Assembly: GCA_023701125.1 (NCBI GenBank)
Contig: JAMPXO010000012.1
Span: 2,130-66,129 of the forward strand
DNA from: Vicinamibacteria bacterium
Lineage (GTDB): Bacteria > Acidobacteriota > Vicinamibacteria > Fen-336
Length of the DNA: 64,000 bases
Direction of reading: 5' to 3'
Part shown: positions 15,683-51,143 of the stretch, one piece after another
Layout of the letters: every line of letters starts with the position of its first letter
Position numbering within the stretch: the stretch's first letter is position 1
Program-made: the position numbers and the translations under genes
The notes under the pieces: generated by a model
What the model was told of the DNA's origin: nothing
What the model saw: only the letters and a program-made list of their open reading frames with translations
The model's database searches: none

Positions 15683-19367
<3,685 letters not shown>

Positions 19368-20717: not shown

Positions 20718-20816
20718 TGGCGGAAGCGTGTGGGAATCGAACCCACCGCCGAGGGTTTCACCCCCCGGCCGGACGGCTTTGAAGGCCGCGCGAGTCACCA
20801 GACCCGATTCGCTTCC
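20718..20816 (-). tRNA. selC: tRNA-Sec (anticodon UCA)
   Basis: 99 nt: GGAAGCGAAUCGGGUCUGGUGACUCGCGCGGCCUUCAAAGCCGUCCGGCCGGGGGGUGAAACCCUCGGCGGUGGGUUCGAUUCCCACACGCUUCCGCCA. It has a long acceptor stem, a 6-bp D-stem with a 4-nt loop, a CUUCAAA anticodon loop, a long 7-bp variable arm, GGUUCGAUUCC, discriminator G and an encoded CCA. The layout parallels E. coli selC. Confidence 0.9.
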
Positions 20817-20905
20817 ATCGCGGCAACGGACGGCCGCCAGAAGTGTAGCCTCATCCCTCCCTGGGTCGCACCTGCATCTTTTTTGGTCGAAAACTACTCA
20901 ATACC

Positions 20906-20934
20906 TTGACGTCACGGGGAGCAGGGCCGATACT
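20906..20934 (+). promoter_or_regulatory. Sigma70-like promoter TTGACG-17-GATACT upstream of the CarH-like gene
   Basis: ccTTGACGtcacggggagcagggccGATACTcc. The -35 is embedded in the 8-bp palindrome TGACGTCA. About 240 nt of leader precede ATG 21180. Confidence 0.45.
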
Positions 20935-21179
20935 CCGGTTCGTGCGATGTTCCTCCCCGAGCCGACGCCAGCCAGGCCCTGAGGACCCACGCGGTCTGCC
21001 CACGGGGGCGCGTCATCCCGCCCCGGCTGCCGAGGCTCTCTTTCTCCTCCGTCCATTCCTTCCAAGCGCGGGGAGGTGGCCGCAGGGCCGCTTCCCCGCT
21101 CCGGGCCTTCCGACCCTTCAAGATCCTGCCCGGCTTCTGAGTGCCAATCGAACGTTATGATCGGCCGCCTGAGGCCCCG

Positions 21180-22124
21180 ATGAACCAGCGAGCGCGGAAC
21201 GAAGCGGACCCCGGGGCGCGCCTGTCGATCGGCGCGCTCTCGCGGGCGACGGGGGTGCCCGTCGAGACCCTGCGCACCTGGGAGGCGCGCTACGGCTTCC
21301 CGGTGCCGGAGCGCAAGCCGTCCGGGCATCGCGTGTACCCGACGACGTCGATCCCGCGCCTGCTCCGCATCGCCGAAGCGCTGGCCCGCGGACACCGCGC
21401 GGGACAGGTGGTCGCCGCCTCCGACTCCGACCTCGACGAGTTGCTGCTGGTGACGCCACCGGCACTGCCGGCGCCGGCAGCGCCGGCCCCGGCGATGCGC
21501 AGCACGGAAGTCCTGCTCGACCACGTCGAGCGCTTCGACGCCGACCGCCTGACCCGGGCCCTGCTCGGCGAGTGGGCACGCCGCGAGCCCGTCGACTTCC
21601 TCGTGCAGGTGATCGCGCCGCTGGTGCGGGCGGTCGGCCTGGCCTGGGAGGAGCGCCGGCTCGAGGTGCGCCACGAGCACTTCTTGTCGGAGCGCGTCGG
21701 CGACCTGTTGCGCTCGCTGCGGCTGCCGCTCGAGGAGCGGGCGCGCGGGCCGCTGGTCGTGCTCGGCTCGCTGCCCGGCGAGAGCCACGGGCTCGGGCTG
21801 CAGATGGTGGCACTGGTGCTGGCCGCGGCCGGCTGCCGGCTGCTCTACCTCGGCACGGAGGTGCCGCCCGACCAGATCGCCGCCCTGGCCCGCGACCTCG
21901 GCGCTCGCGCGCTCGGCCTCAGCATCTCGGCCGCGACCGGCGGCGCCGCGTCGAACGCCCAGTTGCGCCGGCTGCGGGCCGCCCTGCCCCGCCGCATCCA
22001 GTTGCTGGTCGGCGGCGCGGGCGCGCCGAAGAAGAGCGAAGGCATCGAGGTCATCACCGATCTGGCGGTGCTCGACGCCTGGGCGCGGCAGCGCGTGGCC
22101 CGCTCGGAGCTGCGGCCGAGCTGA
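21180..22124 (+). CDS. CarH/LitR-type MerR-family regulator with an adenosylcobalamin-binding photosensory domain
   Basis: N-terminal MerR HTH (LSIGALSRATGVPVETLRTWEARYGFP), then W-x9-EH (AWEERRLEVRHEHF) and the B12-binding ExHxxG...SxS...GG pattern (GESHGLG, GLSIS, LLVGGAG). Confidence 0.85.
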   Translation: MNQRARNEADPGARLSIGALSRATGVPVETLRTWEARYGFPVPERKPSGHRVYPTTSIPRLLRIAEALARGHRAGQVVAASDSDLDELLLVTPPALPAPAAPAPAMRSTEVLLDHVERFDADRLTRALLGEWARREPVDFLVQVIAPLVRAVGLAWEERRLEVRHEHFLSERVGDLLRSLRLPLEERARGPLVVLGSLPGESHGLGLQMVALVLAAAGCRLLYLGTEVPPDQIAALARDLGARALGLSISAATGGAASNAQLRRLRAALPRRIQLLVGGAGAPKKSEGIEVITDLAVLDAWARQRVARSELRPS

Positions 22125-22203
22125 ATCAGCGGCGGCCGTGACGCCGCGCATGCCACGTCGTGCTCCGAGGTCGCGTCGAGTCGGCTAGAATCCTCGCCCA
22201 CCG

Positions 22204-22668
22204 ATGAGCCGCGACCCACAAGCGAGAGGCGACAGCCGGGCCGACGCCTCTCGACGGAACTTCGTGCGCCGCATCCGCATGCCCAGCCGGCGCGAGGCGG
22301 TGGCGCCCACGGTCGACCGCGTGCTGGAGATGATCACGCCGGCGGGGCTCTCGGAGGACCAGCGCGACGACCTCGCGGTGGCGCTGTCGGAAGCGCTGTC
22401 GAACGCGGCGGTCCACGGCAACCGGCTGCGCGCCGACGCCGTCGTGCGCGTCGTGGTGCGGGTCGAGCCCGCGCACTGCGCGGTGATCGAGATCGCCGAC
22501 GACGGCCCCGGCTTCGACGTGGCCCGCGTCCACGACCCGACGGACCCCGACCGGCTGCTGGCGACGGGCGGACGCGGCGTGTTCATGATGAAGCGACTGG
22601 TCGACCGCCTCGAGTACAACGAGAGCGGCAACCGCGTCCGCCTCACGATCGAGACCCGCGCGAGCTAG
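22204..22668 (+). CDS. Anti-sigma regulatory Ser kinase (RsbW/SpoIIAB-like, HATPase_c_2)
   Basis: N-box EALSNAAVHGN, G-boxes DDGPGFD and GGRGVFMMKRL. A TAGAAT box lies 12 nt upstream of the ATG. Confidence 0.85.
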   Translation: MSRDPQARGDSRADASRRNFVRRIRMPSRREAVAPTVDRVLEMITPAGLSEDQRDDLAVALSEALSNAAVHGNRLRADAVVRVVVRVEPAHCAVIEIADDGPGFDVARVHDPTDPDRLLATGGRGVFMMKRLVDRLEYNESGNRVRLTIETRAS

Positions 22669-27408: not shown

Positions 27409-27689
27409 ACCGGCCCGGCGCGGCGGGCGACCAGCCGCGCCACGAACGCCAGCGCGATCAGCATCAGCAGCAGGCCGATCAGCGCCAGCAGCAGCGCCCG
27501 CCCCGGCGACGGCGGGCGAGTCGAGCGCGGCGGCGTGCGTACGGCGAGCAGCAGCCGGTCCTGGCACGCGGCGCAGCGGGCGACGTGCTCCGCGAGGGCG
27601 GCCGGCGCGGCACCGGGCGGCGCCTGCGCGAAGACGACGAGGCCCGCCCGCGTCAGGCAGCCCCGCGCATCCTGCCAGTCAGCGGACAT
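27147..27689 (-). CDS. Putative zf-HC2 (anti-sigma-like) single-pass membrane protein downstream of PYP
   Basis: H-x3-C-x2-C (HVARCAACQ), then a TM helix (ALLLALIGLLLMLIALAFVARLV). There is no stop until 27147, so the last 262 nt run antisense to the SDR 3' end in the frame that shares third positions. The tail may be a shadow reading. Confidence 0.4.
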   Translation of the reverse strand: MSADWQDARGCLTRAGLVVFAQAPPGAAPAALAEHVARCAACQDRLLLAVRTPPRSTRPPSPGRALLLALIGLLLMLIALAFVARLVARRAGPVYGLGAGPSTGTTAPVAGAEVGESRNAITDAIAAGGVQCEKSAAGMSRRLAAVSIVPGTTQLKRTPRSRFSSASTRVSVATPALDTA

Positions 27690-27743
27690 GCGGGTTCATG
27701 CTTGGCTGCGGGCGGGCCGAAGTCAATCGGCGCCGAACCGGCC

Positions 27744-28148
27744 TCAGTTCCGCTTCAGCTCGCGCACGAACACCCACGCCGTCTCCGTGGTCTTGCTGTA
27801 GAACAGCGTCACCGTCACGTCGCGCGGCGCCATCTCGAAGTCGAAGCGGTAGGGAAAGACCTCGTGCAGGTCGCCGACCTTCACGCCCTCGCGGAACTTG
27901 CCGGCGAAGCGCTGCACGTTGGTGCACGGGGCAACGTCGGTGAAGAAGTTCTTGCCGATCACCCGCTTCGGGTCGCGGCCCGTCAGCGTCGCCTCGTGCT
28001 GGTTGAAGCTCAGCACGGTGCCGTTCTTGTCGAGCCGGATGGCCCCGATCGGCAGCGCGTCCAGCTCGCTCTCCTTGAGATGGTCGATGCGCTCCATCTC
28101 GGTCCGGGTCAGGAAGCTCTCGGCCGACTCGTTCACCTGGTTCATCAC
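27744..28148 (-). CDS. pyp: Photoactive yellow protein (PAS-fold, p-coumaric acid chromophore)
   Basis: It aligns end to end with Halorhodospira PYP: GAIRLDKNGTVLSFNQHEATLTGRDPKRVIGKNFFTDVAPCT...FDFEM...WVFV. Cys69, Glu46, Thr50, Arg52 and Met100 equivalents are present. The Tyr42 equivalent is Phe. Confidence 0.9.
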   Translation of the reverse strand: MMNQVNESAESFLTRTEMERIDHLKESELDALPIGAIRLDKNGTVLSFNQHEATLTGRDPKRVIGKNFFTDVAPCTNVQRFAGKFREGVKVGDLHEVFPYRFDFEMAPRDVTVTLFYSKTTETAWVFVRELKRN

Positions 28149-28335
28149 TTGCGTTCTCTCCTCTTCGCGTCCCGCTCACCCAGTTCGCGCACGCCTGCAC
28201 GGCACGGGGAGGAGTCTAAGCGCGGATTCCTGCGCTCTCTTAAATCTGCTCAAATCTTCACATTAATTTAAACAAGACCGCGGCCAGGCACGCCGGCCGT
28301 GCGGCGCCGCTATACTCCGCGGCCTGGAGGAGCGA

Positions 28336-28830
28336 GTGGCCTTCGAGACGACGGCGACGCGGATCTGGAAGCACCTGGCGGCGGAAGACCGGTTGGAAGC
28401 GGCCCAGGCGCTGCTGCGCGAGCCGGCCCCGGACGCGTTCGCCGCGGCGCTGGGCGCCGTGATCCGCGCTCGCCGCCTGCGGCCCCAGGTCGCGCGCACG
28501 ATGCCCGCCGAGCAGCAGGCCCGCATTCTGTCCAGCGTGCTCGACCCCGGCGAGCCGCTGGCGGCGTCGCTGCTGATCGCGCTCCACCTCTCCGCCCGGC
28601 GCCCGCTGCTGGTCGCCTTCCTCGACGCGCTCGGCCTGCCGCACGAGGACGGCGTGCTCAAGGAGGAGGCCGACGCGCTGCCCCCGCCGGCGACCGACAA
28701 GTTGCGCGACGCGGTCCGCGGCCTCGAGGCCGCCTTCCCCGCCGGCCAGGTGCGCGCCTACCTCAACACGCTGCTGCTGCAGGACCCGGAGCGCTGGAGC
28801 GGCCTGGCGGAGGTCGAGCCGGGGGCCTGA
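28336..28830 (+). CDS. Hypothetical protein (164 aa)
   Basis: GTG start preceded by GGAGGA, with TATACT 20 nt upstream. Helical, and I recognise no family. It is divergent from pyp. Confidence 0.55.
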   Translation: MAFETTATRIWKHLAAEDRLEAAQALLREPAPDAFAAALGAVIRARRLRPQVARTMPAEQQARILSSVLDPGEPLAASLLIALHLSARRPLLVAFLDALGLPHEDGVLKEEADALPPPATDKLRDAVRGLEAAFPAGQVRAYLNTLLLQDPERWSGLAEVEPGA

Positions 28831-46653: not shown

Positions 46654-47673
46654 ATGCAGTTCCAGAACCTCGCGATCGAATCGATGGCGTACGAGCTTCC
46701 GCCGGTCTCCGTGTCTTCGCGCGAGATCGAGGAGCGGCTGCGCCACGTCATGGGCAATCTCAAGGTGCCGACCCGCACCCTCGAGCTGCTGACCGGCATC
46801 GTCGAGCGCCGCTTCTGGAACGAGGGCACCCAGGTCCACGAGGCCGCCGCGCGGGTCGCCCGGCGCGCGATCGCCGCCGCCGGCATCGCCGCCGACGCGG
46901 TCGGCGTGCTGATCAACACCTCGGTCTCCAAGGACTACCTCGAGCCGTCGATGGCCAGCCTGGTCCACGGCGACGTCGGCCTGTCCGAGCGCTGCATGAA
47001 CTTCGACGTCTCCAACGCCTGCCTCGGCTTCCTGAACGGGATCGAGGTGGCGGGCCGGATGATCGAGTCCGGCGCCGCCGACTACGCGCTGCTGGTCGAC
47101 GGCGAGAGCTCGCGCCAGGTCGTCGAGTCGACGATCGACCGGCTGTCCGCCCCGGGCGCCACGGCCAAGGACTTCTGGGACAACTTCGCGACCCTGACGC
47201 TCGGCTCGGCTGCCGTGGCGATGGTGCTGTGCCGGGCCGACCGCTCGCGCACCACCCACCGCGTCAACGGCAGCGTGACGCTGGCGGACACCGCGCAGAG
47301 CCGGCTCTGCACGGGCACCGCCGAGCGCATGGTGACCGACTCCACGCGGCTGCTGAAGGCCGGCGTCTCGCTCGCCCAGAAGACGTGGCAGGTCGCGGCC
47401 GAACAACTGGTCTCCTGGTCGCCCGCGGGCATCCGCCGCTTCGTCTGCCACCAGGTCGGCGAGTCGCACATGCGCGCGATGTGCGACGCGCTGCGGATCG
47501 ACTTCAACAAGTGTTTCCTCAGCTACCCCACCCACGGCAACGTGGGCCCGGCCGCGGTGCCGCTGACGCTGGCGCTGGCCGCCGAGGCGGGCGAGCTGAA
47601 GTCGGGCGACCACGTCGCGCTGATGGGGATCGGCTCCGGACTCAACGTCACGATGATGAGCGTGACCTGGTGA
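46654..47673 (+). CDS. oleA: FabH-like thiolase, OleA (head-to-head acyl condensation)
   Basis: Thiolase fold with Cys (SNACLGF), His (CHQVG) and Asn (HGNVGPA). The call rests on the conserved oleABCD context. Confidence 0.8.
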   Translation: MQFQNLAIESMAYELPPVSVSSREIEERLRHVMGNLKVPTRTLELLTGIVERRFWNEGTQVHEAAARVARRAIAAAGIAADAVGVLINTSVSKDYLEPSMASLVHGDVGLSERCMNFDVSNACLGFLNGIEVAGRMIESGAADYALLVDGESSRQVVESTIDRLSAPGATAKDFWDNFATLTLGSAAVAMVLCRADRSRTTHRVNGSVTLADTAQSRLCTGTAERMVTDSTRLLKAGVSLAQKTWQVAAEQLVSWSPAGIRRFVCHQVGESHMRAMCDALRIDFNKCFLSYPTHGNVGPAAVPLTLALAAEAGELKSGDHVALMGIGSGLNVTMMSVTW

Positions 47674-47677
47674 GCTG

Positions 47678-48544
47678 GTGAGCTGGCGCTCACTCTTCCC
47701 CTTCGCCTCCCACACCCTCGACACCCCCGGCGGCCGGCTTCGTTACCTGGACGAGGGCCCGCGCGACGCGCCGGTGCTGCTGTGCGTGCACGGGAATCCC
47801 ACCTGGTCGTTCCTGTGGCGGGACGTCGTGTCGGAGTTCCGCGCCTCACACCGAGTGGTGGCCCCCGACCACCTCGGCTGCGGCCTCTCGGACAAGCCGC
47901 AGAACTGGGGCTACCGGCTCGCCGATCACATCGACAATCTCGGCCGCCTGATCGAGAACCTCGACCTGCAACGGATCACGCTGCTCGTCCACGACTGGGG
48001 CGGGCCGATCGGGCTGGGCGCCGCACTGGCCGAGCCCGCCCGCGTCGAGCGCCTCGTGATCACCAACACCGGCGCCTTCCCCGCCCCGGGCATGCCGGCC
48101 CGGATCGCGGCCTGCCGGCTGCCACTGCTCGGCCCGCTCGCGGTCCGCGGCTTCAACGCCTTCTCGTGGGCGGCCACGTTCATGACCACGGTGCGCGGCC
48201 TCCCGCCCGACGTCGCGGAGGGCTACCTGTACCCGTACCGCTCGTGGGCCGACCGGGTCGCGGTGCAGCGCTTCGTCGAGGACATCCCGCTCGACCCGGG
48301 TCACCCGTCGTGGCCGACGCTGGTCGGCATCGCGGAGGGCCTGCAGCGCCTCGCCGATCGGCCCGGGCTGATCCTGTGGGGCGAGCAGGACTGGTGCTTC
48401 ACCCCGTGGTTCCGCCGCGAGTTCGAGCGGCGCCTGCCGCGGCTCGCGTCGCACCCTTTCGCCGACGCCGGCCACCTGGTGATCGAGGACGCTCGCGGTC
48501 GCGTGCTCGGGCTGCTGCACGAGCTGCTCGACACCACGGCGTGA
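47678..48544 (+). CDS. oleB: Alpha/beta hydrolase, haloalkane-dehalogenase-like OleB (beta-lactone decarboxylase)
   Basis: HGNPTWSFLWR and the nucleophile elbow VHDWGGPIG. GTG start. Confidence 0.8.
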   Translation: MSWRSLFPFASHTLDTPGGRLRYLDEGPRDAPVLLCVHGNPTWSFLWRDVVSEFRASHRVVAPDHLGCGLSDKPQNWGYRLADHIDNLGRLIENLDLQRITLLVHDWGGPIGLGAALAEPARVERLVITNTGAFPAPGMPARIAACRLPLLGPLAVRGFNAFSWAATFMTTVRGLPPDVAEGYLYPYRSWADRVAVQRFVEDIPLDPGHPSWPTLVGIAEGLQRLADRPGLILWGEQDWCFTPWFRREFERRLPRLASHPFADAGHLVIEDARGRVLGLLHELLDTTA

Positions 48545-50136
48545 GCCCGGCCCCCGCCAACGTCGCGCGCCACTTGCGCGCTGCCGCCGCGCGCACCCCG
48601 ACCGCCTGCGCGATCGCCCAGCAGACCCGCGACGGCTACCGCCGCGTTTCGTTCGCCGAGCTCGAGGAGCGCAGCAACGCGGTCGCCCGCGGCCTGCTCG
48701 CCGCGGGCATCGCCCCCGGCGAACTTGCCCTCTGCATGGTGCGGGCCGGCATCGACCTGATCACGCTGACCTACGCGCTGTTCAAGGCCGGCGTCGTGCC
48801 GGTGCTGATCGACCCCGGCATGGGCCTGCGCGGCTTCCTCGCCTGCGTGCGGCGCACGCGGCCGACCGCGCTGGTGGGCCTGCCGCTGGCTCACGCCGTC
48901 AGCCTCGTGGCCGCGGGCGCGTTCGACACCGTACGCACGCGGGTGACCGTCGGCCGCCGCTACGGCTGGAGCGGGCCGACGCTGCACGACCTCGAGCGGC
49001 TCGGGGCTCACGGGGCCGCGCCGCTCCGCGCGCCGACGGCGGGCGCGCCGGCCGCGATCCTGTTCACCTCCGGCAGCACCGGCCCCGCCAAGGGCGTCGT
49101 CTACAGCCACGACCACTTCGACGCCCAGGTCCGGCTGCTCGGCGCGACCTACGCCTTCCGCGAAGGCGACGTGGACCTCGCCGCGTTCCCGCTGTTCTCG
49201 CTGTTCGACAACGCGTTCGGCATGACCAGCGTGATCCCGGACCTCGACCCCTCGCGGCCCGGAAGCTGCGATCCCGCCCGCGTCGCCGCGGCCATCAACG
49301 AGTCCGCGTGCACGACCGCGTTCGGCTCGCCCGCGATCTGGCGGCGGGTCGCGCCGTGGTGCGCCAGGAGCGGCGTGCGGCTGCCGACGCTGAAGCGGGT
49401 GCTGATCGCCGGCGCGTCCGTGCCGCCTGCGCTGATCGCGGCACTGCGCGCGGTGATCGCCGACGGCGGCGACGTGGAGACGCCGTACGGCGCGACCGAG
49501 TCGCTGCCGGTCGCCAACGTGCGCGGCAGCGAGATCCTCGGCGAGACCGCGGCGTTGACCCGCGCGGGCGCCGGCACCTGCGTCGGACGCGTGGTGGACG
49601 GCATGGAAGCGCGGGTGATCCGCATCGACGACGGCCCGATCGCCGCCTGGAACGAGGCCGACGTGCTGCCGCGCGGCGAGGTCGGCGAGATCGCCGTGCG
49701 CGGCCCGGTCGTGACCTGCGCATACCACAACCTGCCCGAGCCGACGGCCGCCGCGAAGATCCCCGACGGCGAGCAGGTCTGGCATCGGATGGGCGACCTC
49801 GGCTACTTCGACGAGGGCGAGCGCCTCTGGTTCTGCGGCCGCAAGGCCGAGCGCGTGGAGACGGCCGCCGGCCCGTGGTTCACGGACAAGGTCGAGGGCC
49901 TGGCCGCTGCCGACGCGCGAGTCGGGCGCTGCGCTTTGGTCGGGGTCGGCCCGCGCGGGGCGCAGCGCCCGGTGCTGGTGGTCGAAGGTCGCCGCGACGA
50001 CGCGCTCGCGGCGGACCTGCGGGCGCGGACGGGGGTCGAGGCCGTGCTGTTCCGCGACAAGCTGCCCGTCGACGTGCGTCACAACGCCAAGATCCATCGC
50101 CTGCAACTCGGCCCGTGGGCGGAGGCGCAACTGTGA
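48541..50136 (+). CDS. oleC: AMP-dependent synthetase OleC (beta-lactone synthetase)
   Basis: AMP-binding motif FTSGSTGPAKGV and TGD-like core. GTGA overlap with oleB. Confidence 0.8.
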   Translation: MSPAPANVARHLRAAAARTPTACAIAQQTRDGYRRVSFAELEERSNAVARGLLAAGIAPGELALCMVRAGIDLITLTYALFKAGVVPVLIDPGMGLRGFLACVRRTRPTALVGLPLAHAVSLVAAGAFDTVRTRVTVGRRYGWSGPTLHDLERLGAHGAAPLRAPTAGAPAAILFTSGSTGPAKGVVYSHDHFDAQVRLLGATYAFREGDVDLAAFPLFSLFDNAFGMTSVIPDLDPSRPGSCDPARVAAAINESACTTAFGSPAIWRRVAPWCARSGVRLPTLKRVLIAGASVPPALIAALRAVIADGGDVETPYGATESLPVANVRGSEILGETAALTRAGAGTCVGRVVDGMEARVIRIDDGPIAAWNEADVLPRGEVGEIAVRGPVVTCAYHNLPEPTAAAKIPDGEQVWHRMGDLGYFDEGERLWFCGRKAERVETAAGPWFTDKVEGLAAADARVGRCALVGVGPRGAQRPVLVVEGRRDDALAADLRARTGVEAVLFRDKLPVDVRHNAKIHRLQLGPWAEAQL

Positions 50137-51143
50137 GGGTGCTGGTCACGGGCGGCGGCGGCTTCCTCGGCCGCGCCGTCGCCCTTCGCCTGGTCGGCCT
50201 CGGCCACGACGTGACCAGCGCGGCCCGCGGCGACTACCCCGAGCTGCGCGCGCTGGGCGTGCGCACGGTGCGACTCGACCTCGGCGATTCCGCGGCGGTG
50301 CGGGCCGCGGCGACGGGCATGGACGCGATCGTGCACGCGGCCGCGAAGGCGGGCGTGTGGGGACCGCGCGAGGAGTACGAGCGCGCGAACGTCGATGGCA
50401 CCCGCCACGTCGTCGAAGCCTGCCGCGCCGCGGGCGTGCCGCGGCTCGTCCACACCAGCTCGCCGAGCGTCGTGTTCGACGGCCGCGATCACGAGAACGC
50501 AGGCAACGACCTGCTGTACCCGGCCCGCCACGAGGCCGTCTACCCCGAGACCAAGGCCGCGGCCGAGCGCCTGGTGCTGGGTGCCAACGGGCGGGAGCTG
50601 GCGACGATCTCGCTGCGCCCGCACCTGATCTGGGGCCCGCGCGACCCGCACCTGCTGCCGCGGCTGTTCGAGCGCGCCCGCCGCGGCCTGCTGCGGATCG
50701 TCGGCAGCGGCCGCAACCGGGTCTCGATCACCTACGTCGACAACGCCGCCGAGGCCCACGTGGCCGCGCTGCTGTCGCTCGCCCCCGGCGCCGCGTGGGC
50801 AGGTCGCGCCTACTTCGTCAACGACGCCGAACCGGTGGTGCTCTGGCAGTGGTTGAACGGCCTGCTGGCCCGACTCGGCCTGCCCCAGGCGACGCGCCGC
50901 GTGCCGCTCGGTGTGGCCCGCGCGGCGGGAGCGATCCTGGAGACGACCTGGCGCGCGCTGCGCCTCGCGGGAGAGCCGCCGCTGACCCGCTTCGTCGCGG
51001 CCCAGCTCGCGGCCAGCCACTGGTACGACCTGGCCCCGGCCCGCGCCGCCTTCGGCTACGCGCCCCCGGTCGATGGCGAAGAGGCGCTGCGCCGCACGGT
51101 CGAGTGGTGGGGCCCGCGGGTCCGCGGCCCGGGAGGCGAATGA
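50133..51143 (+). CDS. oleD: NAD(P)-dependent 3-beta-HSD/epimerase-family reductase OleD
   Basis: VTGGGGFLG and YPETKAAAE (YxxxK). GTGA overlap with oleC. Confidence 0.8.
   Translation: MRVLVTGGGGFLGRAVALRLVGLGHDVTSAARGDYPELRALGVRTVRLDLGDSAAVRAAATGMDAIVHAAAKAGVWGPREEYERANVDGTRHVVEACRAAGVPRLVHTSSPSVVFDGRDHENAGNDLLYPARHEAVYPETKAAAERLVLGANGRELATISLRPHLIWGPRDPHLLPRLFERARRGLLRIVGSGRNRVSITYVDNAAEAHVAALLSLAPGAAWAGRAYFVNDAEPVVLWQWLNGLLARLGLPQATRRVPLGVARAAGAILETTWRALRLAGEPPLTRFVAAQLAASHWYDLAPARAAFGYAPPVDGEEALRRTVEWWGPRVRGPGGE

Follow-up and report, generated by a model that had tools for sequence, protein, structure and literature searches.

A natural Phe42 photoactive yellow protein homologue in an acidobacterial genome, and covariation of positions 42 and 45 among its relatives

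The gene pyp, carried by the 64-kb stretch of acidobacterial DNA analyzed here (the window), encodes an intact member of the photoactive yellow protein (PYP) family that is maintained by selection and has phenylalanine in place of the tyrosine at position 42. On the evidence of its conserved sequence, the product is probably a functional photoreceptor, a single-domain PYP that binds p-coumarate and responds to blue light. The combination of Phe42 with the absence of linked chromophore genes is ordinary for the PYP family. As a textbook case, PYP is used to study photoreceptor dynamics and short hydrogen bonds, and what this gene adds is modest: a coupling between positions 42 and 45, and a view of the light-response context in which acidobacterial pyp genes are found. 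The features discussed are listed in Table 1.

Table 1. Positions of the features discussed, in window coordinates. Residues of the pyp product are followed in parentheses by the equivalent position in Halorhodospira PYP.
Feature	Position	Strand	Basis
Promoter-associated motif AAAACTACTCAATACCTTGAC, upstream of the CarH-like gene	20890..20910	+	0 chance matches expected
CarH/LitR-type regulator gene, 5.6 kb from pyp	21141..22124	+	Pfam MerR_1, B12-binding_2, B12-binding; signature motifs
HATPase_c_2 gene of the RsbW-like anti-sigma kinase type, immediately 3' of the CarH-like gene	22204..22668	+	Pfam, synteny
Small conserved ORF on the pyp strand, 55 nt 3' of pyp	27409..27689	-	Alignment in which many differences are synonymous, dN/dS 0.23
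pyp, single-domain photoactive yellow protein homologue	27744..28148	-	ORF, coding signature, alignment, fold
Cys75 (Cys69, thioester attachment site), within DVAPCT, codon TGC	27924..27926	-	Sequence, alignments
Thr56 (Thr50), codon ACG	27981..27983	-	Sequence, alignments
Glu52 (Glu46, hydrogen-bond and proton donor), codon GAG	27993..27995	-	Sequence, alignments
His51 (Ala45 position; covaries with Phe42), codon CAC	27996..27998	-	Mutual information, counts
Phe48 (Tyr42 position, phenolate hydrogen-bond donor in Halorhodospira PYP), codon TTC	28005..28007	-	Sequence, alignments
Intergenic region separating pyp from the divergent 164-aa gene	28149..28335	.	Sequence and alignment with L001, L083, L085
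FabH-like gene, oleABCD-type cluster	46654..47673		
Alpha/beta-hydrolase gene, oleABCD-type cluster	47678..48544		
AMP-binding enzyme (the only one in the window), oleABCD-type cluster	ORF 47782..50136		
3beta-HSD-type reductase gene, oleABCD-type cluster	50136..51143		

The pyp ORF encodes 134 amino acids when read from a GTG and 133 when read from the ATG at 28145. Since this ATG, one codon in, is common to the relatives, it is the likelier start; it is preceded by GGAGAG. The G+C content at the three codon positions (0.59/0.38/0.97, in a window of 72% G+C) gives a clear coding signature, and the gene is under purifying selection, with a dN/dS of 0.30 against the 84%-identical orthologue in L001. 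Two independent metagenome contigs carry genes for the identical PYP protein. The intergenic region upstream of pyp contains an AT-rich stretch (about 28240-28275) and a -10-like hexamer, TAGACT, on the minus strand (28213-28218), and a scan of this region with the strict sigma-70 consensus found no site. The lack of a strong sigma-70 consensus promoter would fit a gene that has become a decaying or unexpressed relic, as would the divergence in the window of a motif that marks the pyp promoter in a sister lineage (see below). Against this, the reading frame is intact, its third-position G+C and dN/dS are those of a maintained gene, the same protein recurs in two independent metagenome assemblies and the downstream ORF is conserved too, so that decay is very improbable.

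The original prediction described the product as a full-length homologue of Halorhodospira PYP in which Tyr42 and Tyr98 are naturally replaced by Phe while Cys69, Glu46, Thr50, Arg52 and Met100 are kept, and all of this holds. A phmmer search against all PDB sequences aligned query residues 23-130 with PYP residues 17-124 with zero gaps (E ~1e-32), the engineered Y42F entry 1F9I being among the best matches. The identical register was obtained from phmmer, from a MAFFT alignment with 120 relatives and from Foldseek structural alignment, and in it query numbering equals Halorhodospira PYP numbering plus 6. The two substituted positions are Phe48 and Phe104; the kept residues are Cys75, Glu52, Thr56, Arg58 and Met106, and the codons were confirmed in the DNA. 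A shift of register that would restore a tyrosine at the chromophore phenolate was considered and rejected, since query residues 40-60 contain no Tyr for such a shift to place there and the three alignments are gapless. The further pocket residues listed in PMC12826048 (Ile31, Phe62, Val66, Ala67, Pro68 and Phe96) are all kept, as Ile37, Phe68, Val72, Ala73, Pro74 and Phe102. Together with Cys69 they are invariant across the alignment of the relatives, and of nine pocket residues in the window protein Tyr42 alone is not retained.

The predicted fold agrees with the alignments. An AlphaFold2 model built with 68 sequences (pLDDT 80.3, pTM 0.72) has the strand and helix order of PYP, and its 40 best Foldseek matches in the PDB are all PYP or PYP-derived (TM 0.80-0.89, E ~1e-13), with 1F9I again near the top, whereas other PAS domains reach only E ~1e-6. 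In Pfam the product matches PAS, PAS_4 and PAS_9. Against the TIGR02373 model ('photo_yellow') it scores 136.8 bits (E 4e-40), a narrow miss of the equivalog cut-off of 143.05 bits. Ten members of its clade score between 135 and 150 bits, the Phe42 proteins mostly just below the cut-off and the Tyr42 proteins mostly just above it. The same model has been reported to capture only 20% of the PYP family, membership of which Xing et al. (2022) define by Cys69 (PMC9664959).

The rarity of Phe42 that the original prediction implied is not borne out. Y42F is the commonest Tyr42 substitution, present in about 9% of 789 homologues, in clades A and B (Xing et al. 2022, PMC9664959), and a later survey gives Phe42 as 8.9% of 984 homologues (Dohmen et al. 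2025, PMC12826048). In our samples the share is 13-17%: 18 of the 121 closest sequences, 27 of 201 unique cores and 20 of 151 Cys69-containing domains among diverse representatives at 50% identity. Nor is Phe98 a peculiarity of this protein; it is found in 121 of the 121 closest relatives and is a trait of a large Acidobacteriota clade. Cys69, Glu46, Thr50 and Arg52 are invariant in the same 121 sequences. Phe42 and Gln46 never occur together in PYP homologues, and Phe42 homologues that contain Cys69 are treated as PYP family members expected to bind p-coumaric acid (PMC9664959). Natural Phe42 PYPs are absent among the homologues with a described characterization in PMC9664959 and PMC12826048.

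The chromophore genes TAL and pCL had been predicted to be missing from the vicinity of pyp, and the only acyl-AMP ligase of the window to belong to an ole cluster; both observations stand. A six-frame search of the 64-kb window for the MIO motif ASGD[LIM] found no match, and neither did tblastn at E<=0.01 with TAL and pCL proteins from the pyp operons of Vreelandella, Idiomarina, Rheinheimera and Herminiimonas. As a control, the same motif search was applied to proteobacterial loci and recovered TAL in about 22 of them, some 2 kb downstream of pyp. The Pfam map covers every sizeable ORF of the window. A TAL hidden in the remaining gaps, which hold ABC-transporter parts, an FHA protein and a multiheme cytochrome, was rejected on the strength of the negative whole-window motif and tblastn searches. 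The single AMP-binding enzyme lies amid genes of the oleABCD pattern (Table 1); as an OleC inside that cluster, and unlike the pCLs of pyp operons at E<=0.01, it was rejected as a hidden pCL.

The lack of chromophore genes beside pyp is not unusual either, although it had been presented as if it were. According to published surveys, only 5% of predicted pyp operons contain TAL and 32% contain pCL, and in our comparison none of about 40 acidobacterial pyp loci, Tyr42 or Phe42 alike, has a TAL or pCL linked within 10 kb. Because Tyr42 relatives in the same clade are also without linked TAL, its absence does not track with Phe42.

Absent from the original prediction is any mention of position 45, which holds a His here and covaries with Phe42. 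In the acidobacterial clade the column with the highest mutual information with column 42 is column 45 (0.49 bits against a possible maximum of 0.65; 0.34 for the runner-up), a statistic that, like the others given here for this pair, ignores phylogeny. Among the closest relatives Phe42 nearly always occurs with His, Tyr or Arg at 45, and Tyr42 with Thr or Ala. The 201 unique cores show the same pairing. When residue 42 is Phe (n=27), residue 45 is H in 13, Y in 4, R in 4, M in 3, T in 2 and A in 1; when it is Tyr (n=174), residue 45 is T in 105, A in 52, S in 3, V in 2 and P in 1, and is large in 11 (M in 4, Y in 3, and K, F, H and I). H, Y, R or M is thus present at 45 in 24 of the 27 Phe42 proteins of this close family, and a donor (H, Y or R) in 21. 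Each of His, Tyr and Arg has a long side chain able to donate a hydrogen bond. Across the 151 diverse Cys69 domains, a donor at 45 (here Y, H, K, R, W or N) accompanies Phe42 in 11 of 20 cases and Tyr42 in 22 of 122 (Fisher p = 9e-4, by a test that ignores phylogeny). Ala or Thr occupies position 45 in 8 of the 20 diverse Phe42 domains, which makes the coupling a tendency. A neighbor-joining tree requires about 10 parsimony changes at position 42 and places the acidobacterial Phe42 proteins in two main groups plus singletons; the coupling is partly lineage inheritance. Position 45 is unmentioned in both PYP surveys (PMC9664959, PMC12826048), a literature search found no paper on PYP residue 45, and the coupling may be new.

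Residue 45 comes three after residue 42, at the start of helix alpha-3, and by helical periodicity its side chain therefore lies beside that of 42. Intermediates are present among the homologues, Tyr42/His45 in L023 and Tyr42/Tyr45 in P0006, and they hint that the change at residue 45 may have come first, rendering the Tyr42 hydroxyl dispensable. We put forward, tentatively and with more doubt than conviction, that PYPs combining Phe42 with His, Tyr or Arg at 45 form a 'relocated-donor' subclass, in which a residue one turn along the helix would supply the second hydrogen bond, whether to the phenolate or to Glu46. If this were true, His45 as the relocated donor would provide a pH-sensitive or otherwise distinct spectral or kinetic tuning that is so far undescribed for PYP.

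By homology, p-coumaric acid would be thioester-linked to Cys75, its phenolate would be stabilized by protonated Glu52, and light would cause trans-cis isomerization, proton transfer from the Glu and partial unfolding to the signaling state. Because the Tyr42 hydroxyl is missing at Phe48, the second hydrogen bond must come from elsewhere. Two replacement donors can be suggested: Thr56, equivalent to the Thr50 that is invariant in the clade and that takes this role in the Y42F crystal structure, and His51, to which the covariation points. The expected consequence would be a shifted or pH-sensitive absorption band rather than lost function, and the spectral tuning that was proposed for this homologue by analogy to the engineered Y42F protein is plausible. 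The chromophore would be supplied by unlinked genes or by environmental p-coumarate, as across the acidobacterial clade.

A different chromophore has to be weighed at this point. In vitro, Halorhodospira PYP accepts chromophore analogues on reconstitution, and the window protein might bind another hydroxycinnamate, for instance plant-litter caffeate or ferulate, with Phe42/His45 fitting a ring substituent near the phenolate. The changes do cluster at 42 and 45 beside the phenolate site, no acidobacterial pyp has a linked TAL, and the sequence comes from environments (soil, rhizosphere and groundwater) with a supply of lignin-derived hydroxycinnamates. The remaining pocket residues, however, are identical to those of p-coumarate-binding PYPs, and Tyr42 relatives of the clade are equally without linked TAL. 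We regard another hydroxycinnamate as unlikely and continue to favor p-coumarate.

The relatives of the window protein form a large group. A search of a 90%-clustered database yielded 707 homologues at E<=1e-5; the nearest (84-85% identity) come from metagenome-assembled genomes (MAGs) labelled Vicinamibacteria or Acidobacteria, followed by a large set of Thermoanaerobaculia MAGs (62-79%). Acidobacteriota made up 2.4% of the homologues in the 2025 survey (PMC12826048) and contribute hundreds here, and the acidobacterial PYP clade is much larger than published surveys show. Groundwater metagenomes cover the window sequence itself in full; soil, rhizosphere and sediment samples cover part of it.

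Thermoanaerobaculia have pyp in a conserved cluster. Immediately upstream is a CPD-photolyase-like gene; pyp is often followed at once by an EAL gene and one or two more PYP paralogues, and after these come Fer4_13, BrkB-like and VTT/DedA genes. Several of these loci also have a divergent MerR-B12 regulator. An EAL gene lies directly downstream of pyp in about 12 acidobacterial loci, and EAL genes are candidate PYP partners in these cousin genomes. Photolyase, MerR and B12 neighbors of pyp are unmentioned in both surveys (PMC9664959, PMC12826048), and the light-response context of acidobacterial pyp (photolyase, CarH/LitR-type regulator and EAL) may be new.

The 64-kb window contains no second PYP paralogue and no photolyase, EAL, Fer4_13, BrkB or VTT gene. 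On the 5' side of pyp lie the divergent gene for a 164-aa protein with no Pfam match and then a PIG-L deacetylase gene; on the 3' side lie the small conserved ORF and then convergent SDR and aminotransferase genes. These neighbors are conserved in close relatives only (L001, L081, L083-86). The product of the small ORF has the pattern C-x23-H-x3-C-x2-C (C11, H35, C39, C42) followed by one transmembrane helix, and a single homologue was found in 5.8 billion proteins; the stop-free frame extends to 27147, antisense to the SDR gene. The ORF is a possible operon partner of pyp. Its identification as a ZAS-type/zf-HC2 anti-sigma factor was rejected, there being no Pfam match even at E 0.5 and no sigma-factor gene in the flanking Pfam map.

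The CarH-like protein carries the signatures W-x9-E-H (WEERRLEVRHEH, at residue 169) and E/D-x-H-x-x-G (ESHGLG, at residue 214). Its gene is syntenic in L001, L083 and L084; in L005, L013, L014, L016 and L018, homologues stand directly upstream of pyp. The 21-mer pattern found upstream of the CarH-like gene recurs in the sister lineage, where it precedes pyp by about 100 nt. An operator common to the CarH-like promoter and the window's pyp promoter was rejected, since the 21-mer precedes pyp in the sister lineage only. Also rejected was a riboswitch in the conserved leader of about 170 nt upstream of the CarH-like gene, for which Rfam gave no match, either at the gathering threshold or at E<=1. 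Within the window, the candidate signaling partners of pyp would be the membrane protein encoded by the small ORF and CarH-linked regulation.

In the lineage of the window, pyp has moved out of a photolyase-pyp-EAL cluster to its present place beside the small membrane ORF, 5.6 kb from the CarH-type gene. Departure from the canonical cluster would also suit a PYP-fold PAS domain that is no longer a light sensor and that functions chromophore-free or with another signal, and so would the score under the TIGR02373 cut-off and the recovery of the sequence mainly from groundwater metagenomes, where light is scarce. Neofunctionalization has been proposed for other PYP homologues, but these have Cys69 substitutions (PMC9664959). 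In the window protein, Cys69, Glu46, Thr50, Arg52 and the hydrophobic pocket are kept under purifying selection, the TIGR02373 shortfall is marginal in a clade that straddles the cut-off, and the CarH-type photoreceptor gene kept nearby indicates that the lineage is still light-responsive. Loss of light sensing is accordingly improbable, and a blue-light photoreceptor remains the preferred reading. As natural variants, the window protein and its His45, Tyr45 and Arg45 cousins lend themselves to the study of a phenolate network rebuilt without Tyr42, and the photolyase, CarH and EAL neighborhoods of Acidobacteriota are leads to the long-missing PYP output pathway.

Halorhodospira halophila PYP (2PHY, 1NWZ) and the window protein have the same single-domain PAS/PYP fold (TM 0.80-0.87) and are 42-44% identical, without gaps over 17-124. 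Both have Cys69, Glu46, Thr50, Arg52, Met100, Ile31, Phe62, Val66, Ala67, Pro68 and Phe96. Unlike the Halorhodospira protein, the window protein has Phe at 42 and 98 and His at 45, and its N-terminal cap is longer by 6-8 residues. The genetic setting differs as well, since the window is without the pyp-pcl-tal operon of Halorhodospira and the host is a non-phototrophic acidobacterium.

The EAL link of the cousin acidobacterial loci resembles that of Idiomarina loihiensis PYP and other GGDEF/EAL-adjacent PYPs; PYPs beside GGDEF/EAL genes are a published biofilm-regulating class (PMC9664959). In the window no GGDEF or EAL gene adjoins pyp, and c-di-GMP output therefore cannot be assumed for it. 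The pyp clusters of Thermoanaerobaculia (for example L087, L088 and L013) belong to the same clade at 62-79% identity, with Phe98, Thr50 and Arg52 invariant, and mostly have Tyr42/Thr45. Their arrangement is photolyase-pyp-(EAL-pyp2)-Fer4_13-BrkB-VTT, often with a divergent CarH-like gene, and of these neighbors the window keeps just the CarH-like gene, 5.6 kb off.

The engineered Y42F protein (1F9I) and the window protein both have Phe42 together with Glu46 and Thr50. In the Y42F crystal structure Thr50 takes over the chromophore hydrogen bond (PMC9664959), and the absorbance of the mutant is altered (PMC9664959, PMC12826048). The engineered protein has Ala45 and Tyr98 whereas the window protein has His45 and Phe98, and for this reason the hydrogen-bond network and spectrum of the latter need not copy those of the mutant. 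The natural Phe42 homologues of Xing et al. (2022) and Dohmen et al. (2025) are of the same Cys69/Glu46/Phe42 class as the window protein.

The upstream region of the CarH-like gene, which lies 5.6 kb from the photoactive yellow protein (PYP) homologue gene pyp, carries a 21-nt motif that contains a -35-like TTGAC and an 11-nt internal repeat. The CarH-like gene or operon lies downstream of the motif. A further copy occurs about 100 nt upstream of pyp in the sister lineage, which suggests that pyp and the CarH-like gene are co-regulated in that lineage; in the window itself, the pyp promoter has diverged where the motif would lie. Features of the region and of related loci are summarized in the table below.

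Features of the window and of pyp loci in related genomes
Feature	Position	Strand	Remark
tRNA-Sec gene	window 20718-20816	-	anticodon TCA; Rfam 71.9 bits
21-nt motif AAARCTACTCAAWAVCTTGAC	window 20890-20910	+	5' of CarH-like gene
21-nt motif, copies in relatives	L083 9878-9898 and 17936-17956; L001 9881-9901
Conserved 5' leader	window ~20940-21120	+	~170 nt, GC-rich; between 21-nt-motif promoter and CarH-like gene
Matching leader	L083 ~17700-17900	-	aligned to window leader
CarH/LitR-type B12 photoregulator, then RsbW-like HATPase_c_2 gene	window 21141-22668	+	W-x9-E-H and E-x-H-x-x-G motifs
Small ORF	window 27409-27689	-	same strand as pyp, 55 nt downstream
164-aa protein gene	window 28336-28830	+	divergent from pyp
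oleABCD-type cluster	window 46654-51143	+	olefin or beta-lactone lipid synthesis type
Tandem PYP loci	L087 8001-9875; also L002, L003, L008, L010, L012, L013, L017, L019, L021, L024

In the close relatives L083 and L001, the leader of a folE-carH-like operon aligns with that of the window's CarH-like gene; folE itself is missing from the window apart from its last ~40 nt. An Rfam search of the leader returned no matching family (gathering threshold or E<=1); it may represent a type of structured leader not yet described. The CarH-like and HATPase_c_2 pair adjoins, in L083 and L084, a GTP cyclohydrolase I gene, two cyclopropane-fatty-acid-synthase-like methyltransferases and DUF1365. The tRNA-Sec gene has an 85-aa ORF on one side and the promoter of the CarH-like gene on the other; given this gene, the organism probably uses selenocysteine. 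Further along, the oleABCD-type cluster comprises a FabH-like thiolase, an alpha/beta hydrolase, an AMP-binding enzyme and a 3beta-HSD-type reductase.

Two genes without a Pfam match flank pyp. The small ORF, whose frame runs without a stop as far as 27147, encodes a C-x23-H-x3-C-x2-C pattern followed by a single transmembrane helix; towards the C-terminus its frame runs antisense to the 3' end of an SDR gene. The ORF is conserved in L001, L083, L085 and L086, where most of the changes are synonymous (dN/dS 0.23), and a single homologue (P0121) was found among 5.8 billion proteins. The all-helical-looking 164-aa protein is encoded next to pyp in the closest relatives only (85-86% identity in L001 and L083-L085).

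The pyp region (window 27600-28400) is fully covered in groundwater metagenomes (runs X1 and X2). Groundwater is an unexpected habitat for an organism retaining both PYP and CarH-type light sensors.

Elsewhere, many Thermoanaerobaculia encode two or three tandem PYP paralogues per genome, often with an EAL gene in between; in the second paralogue, position 50 is Ser or Ala and Met100 is absent. In about 14 loci, pyp is immediately preceded on its 5' side by a CPD-photolyase-like gene. A search of representative sequences also identified two very large multi-domain proteins: P0122 (1174 aa) contains 4 PYP-like stretches and P0123 (4799 aa) contains 31, repeat architectures that are unusual for the PYP domain.
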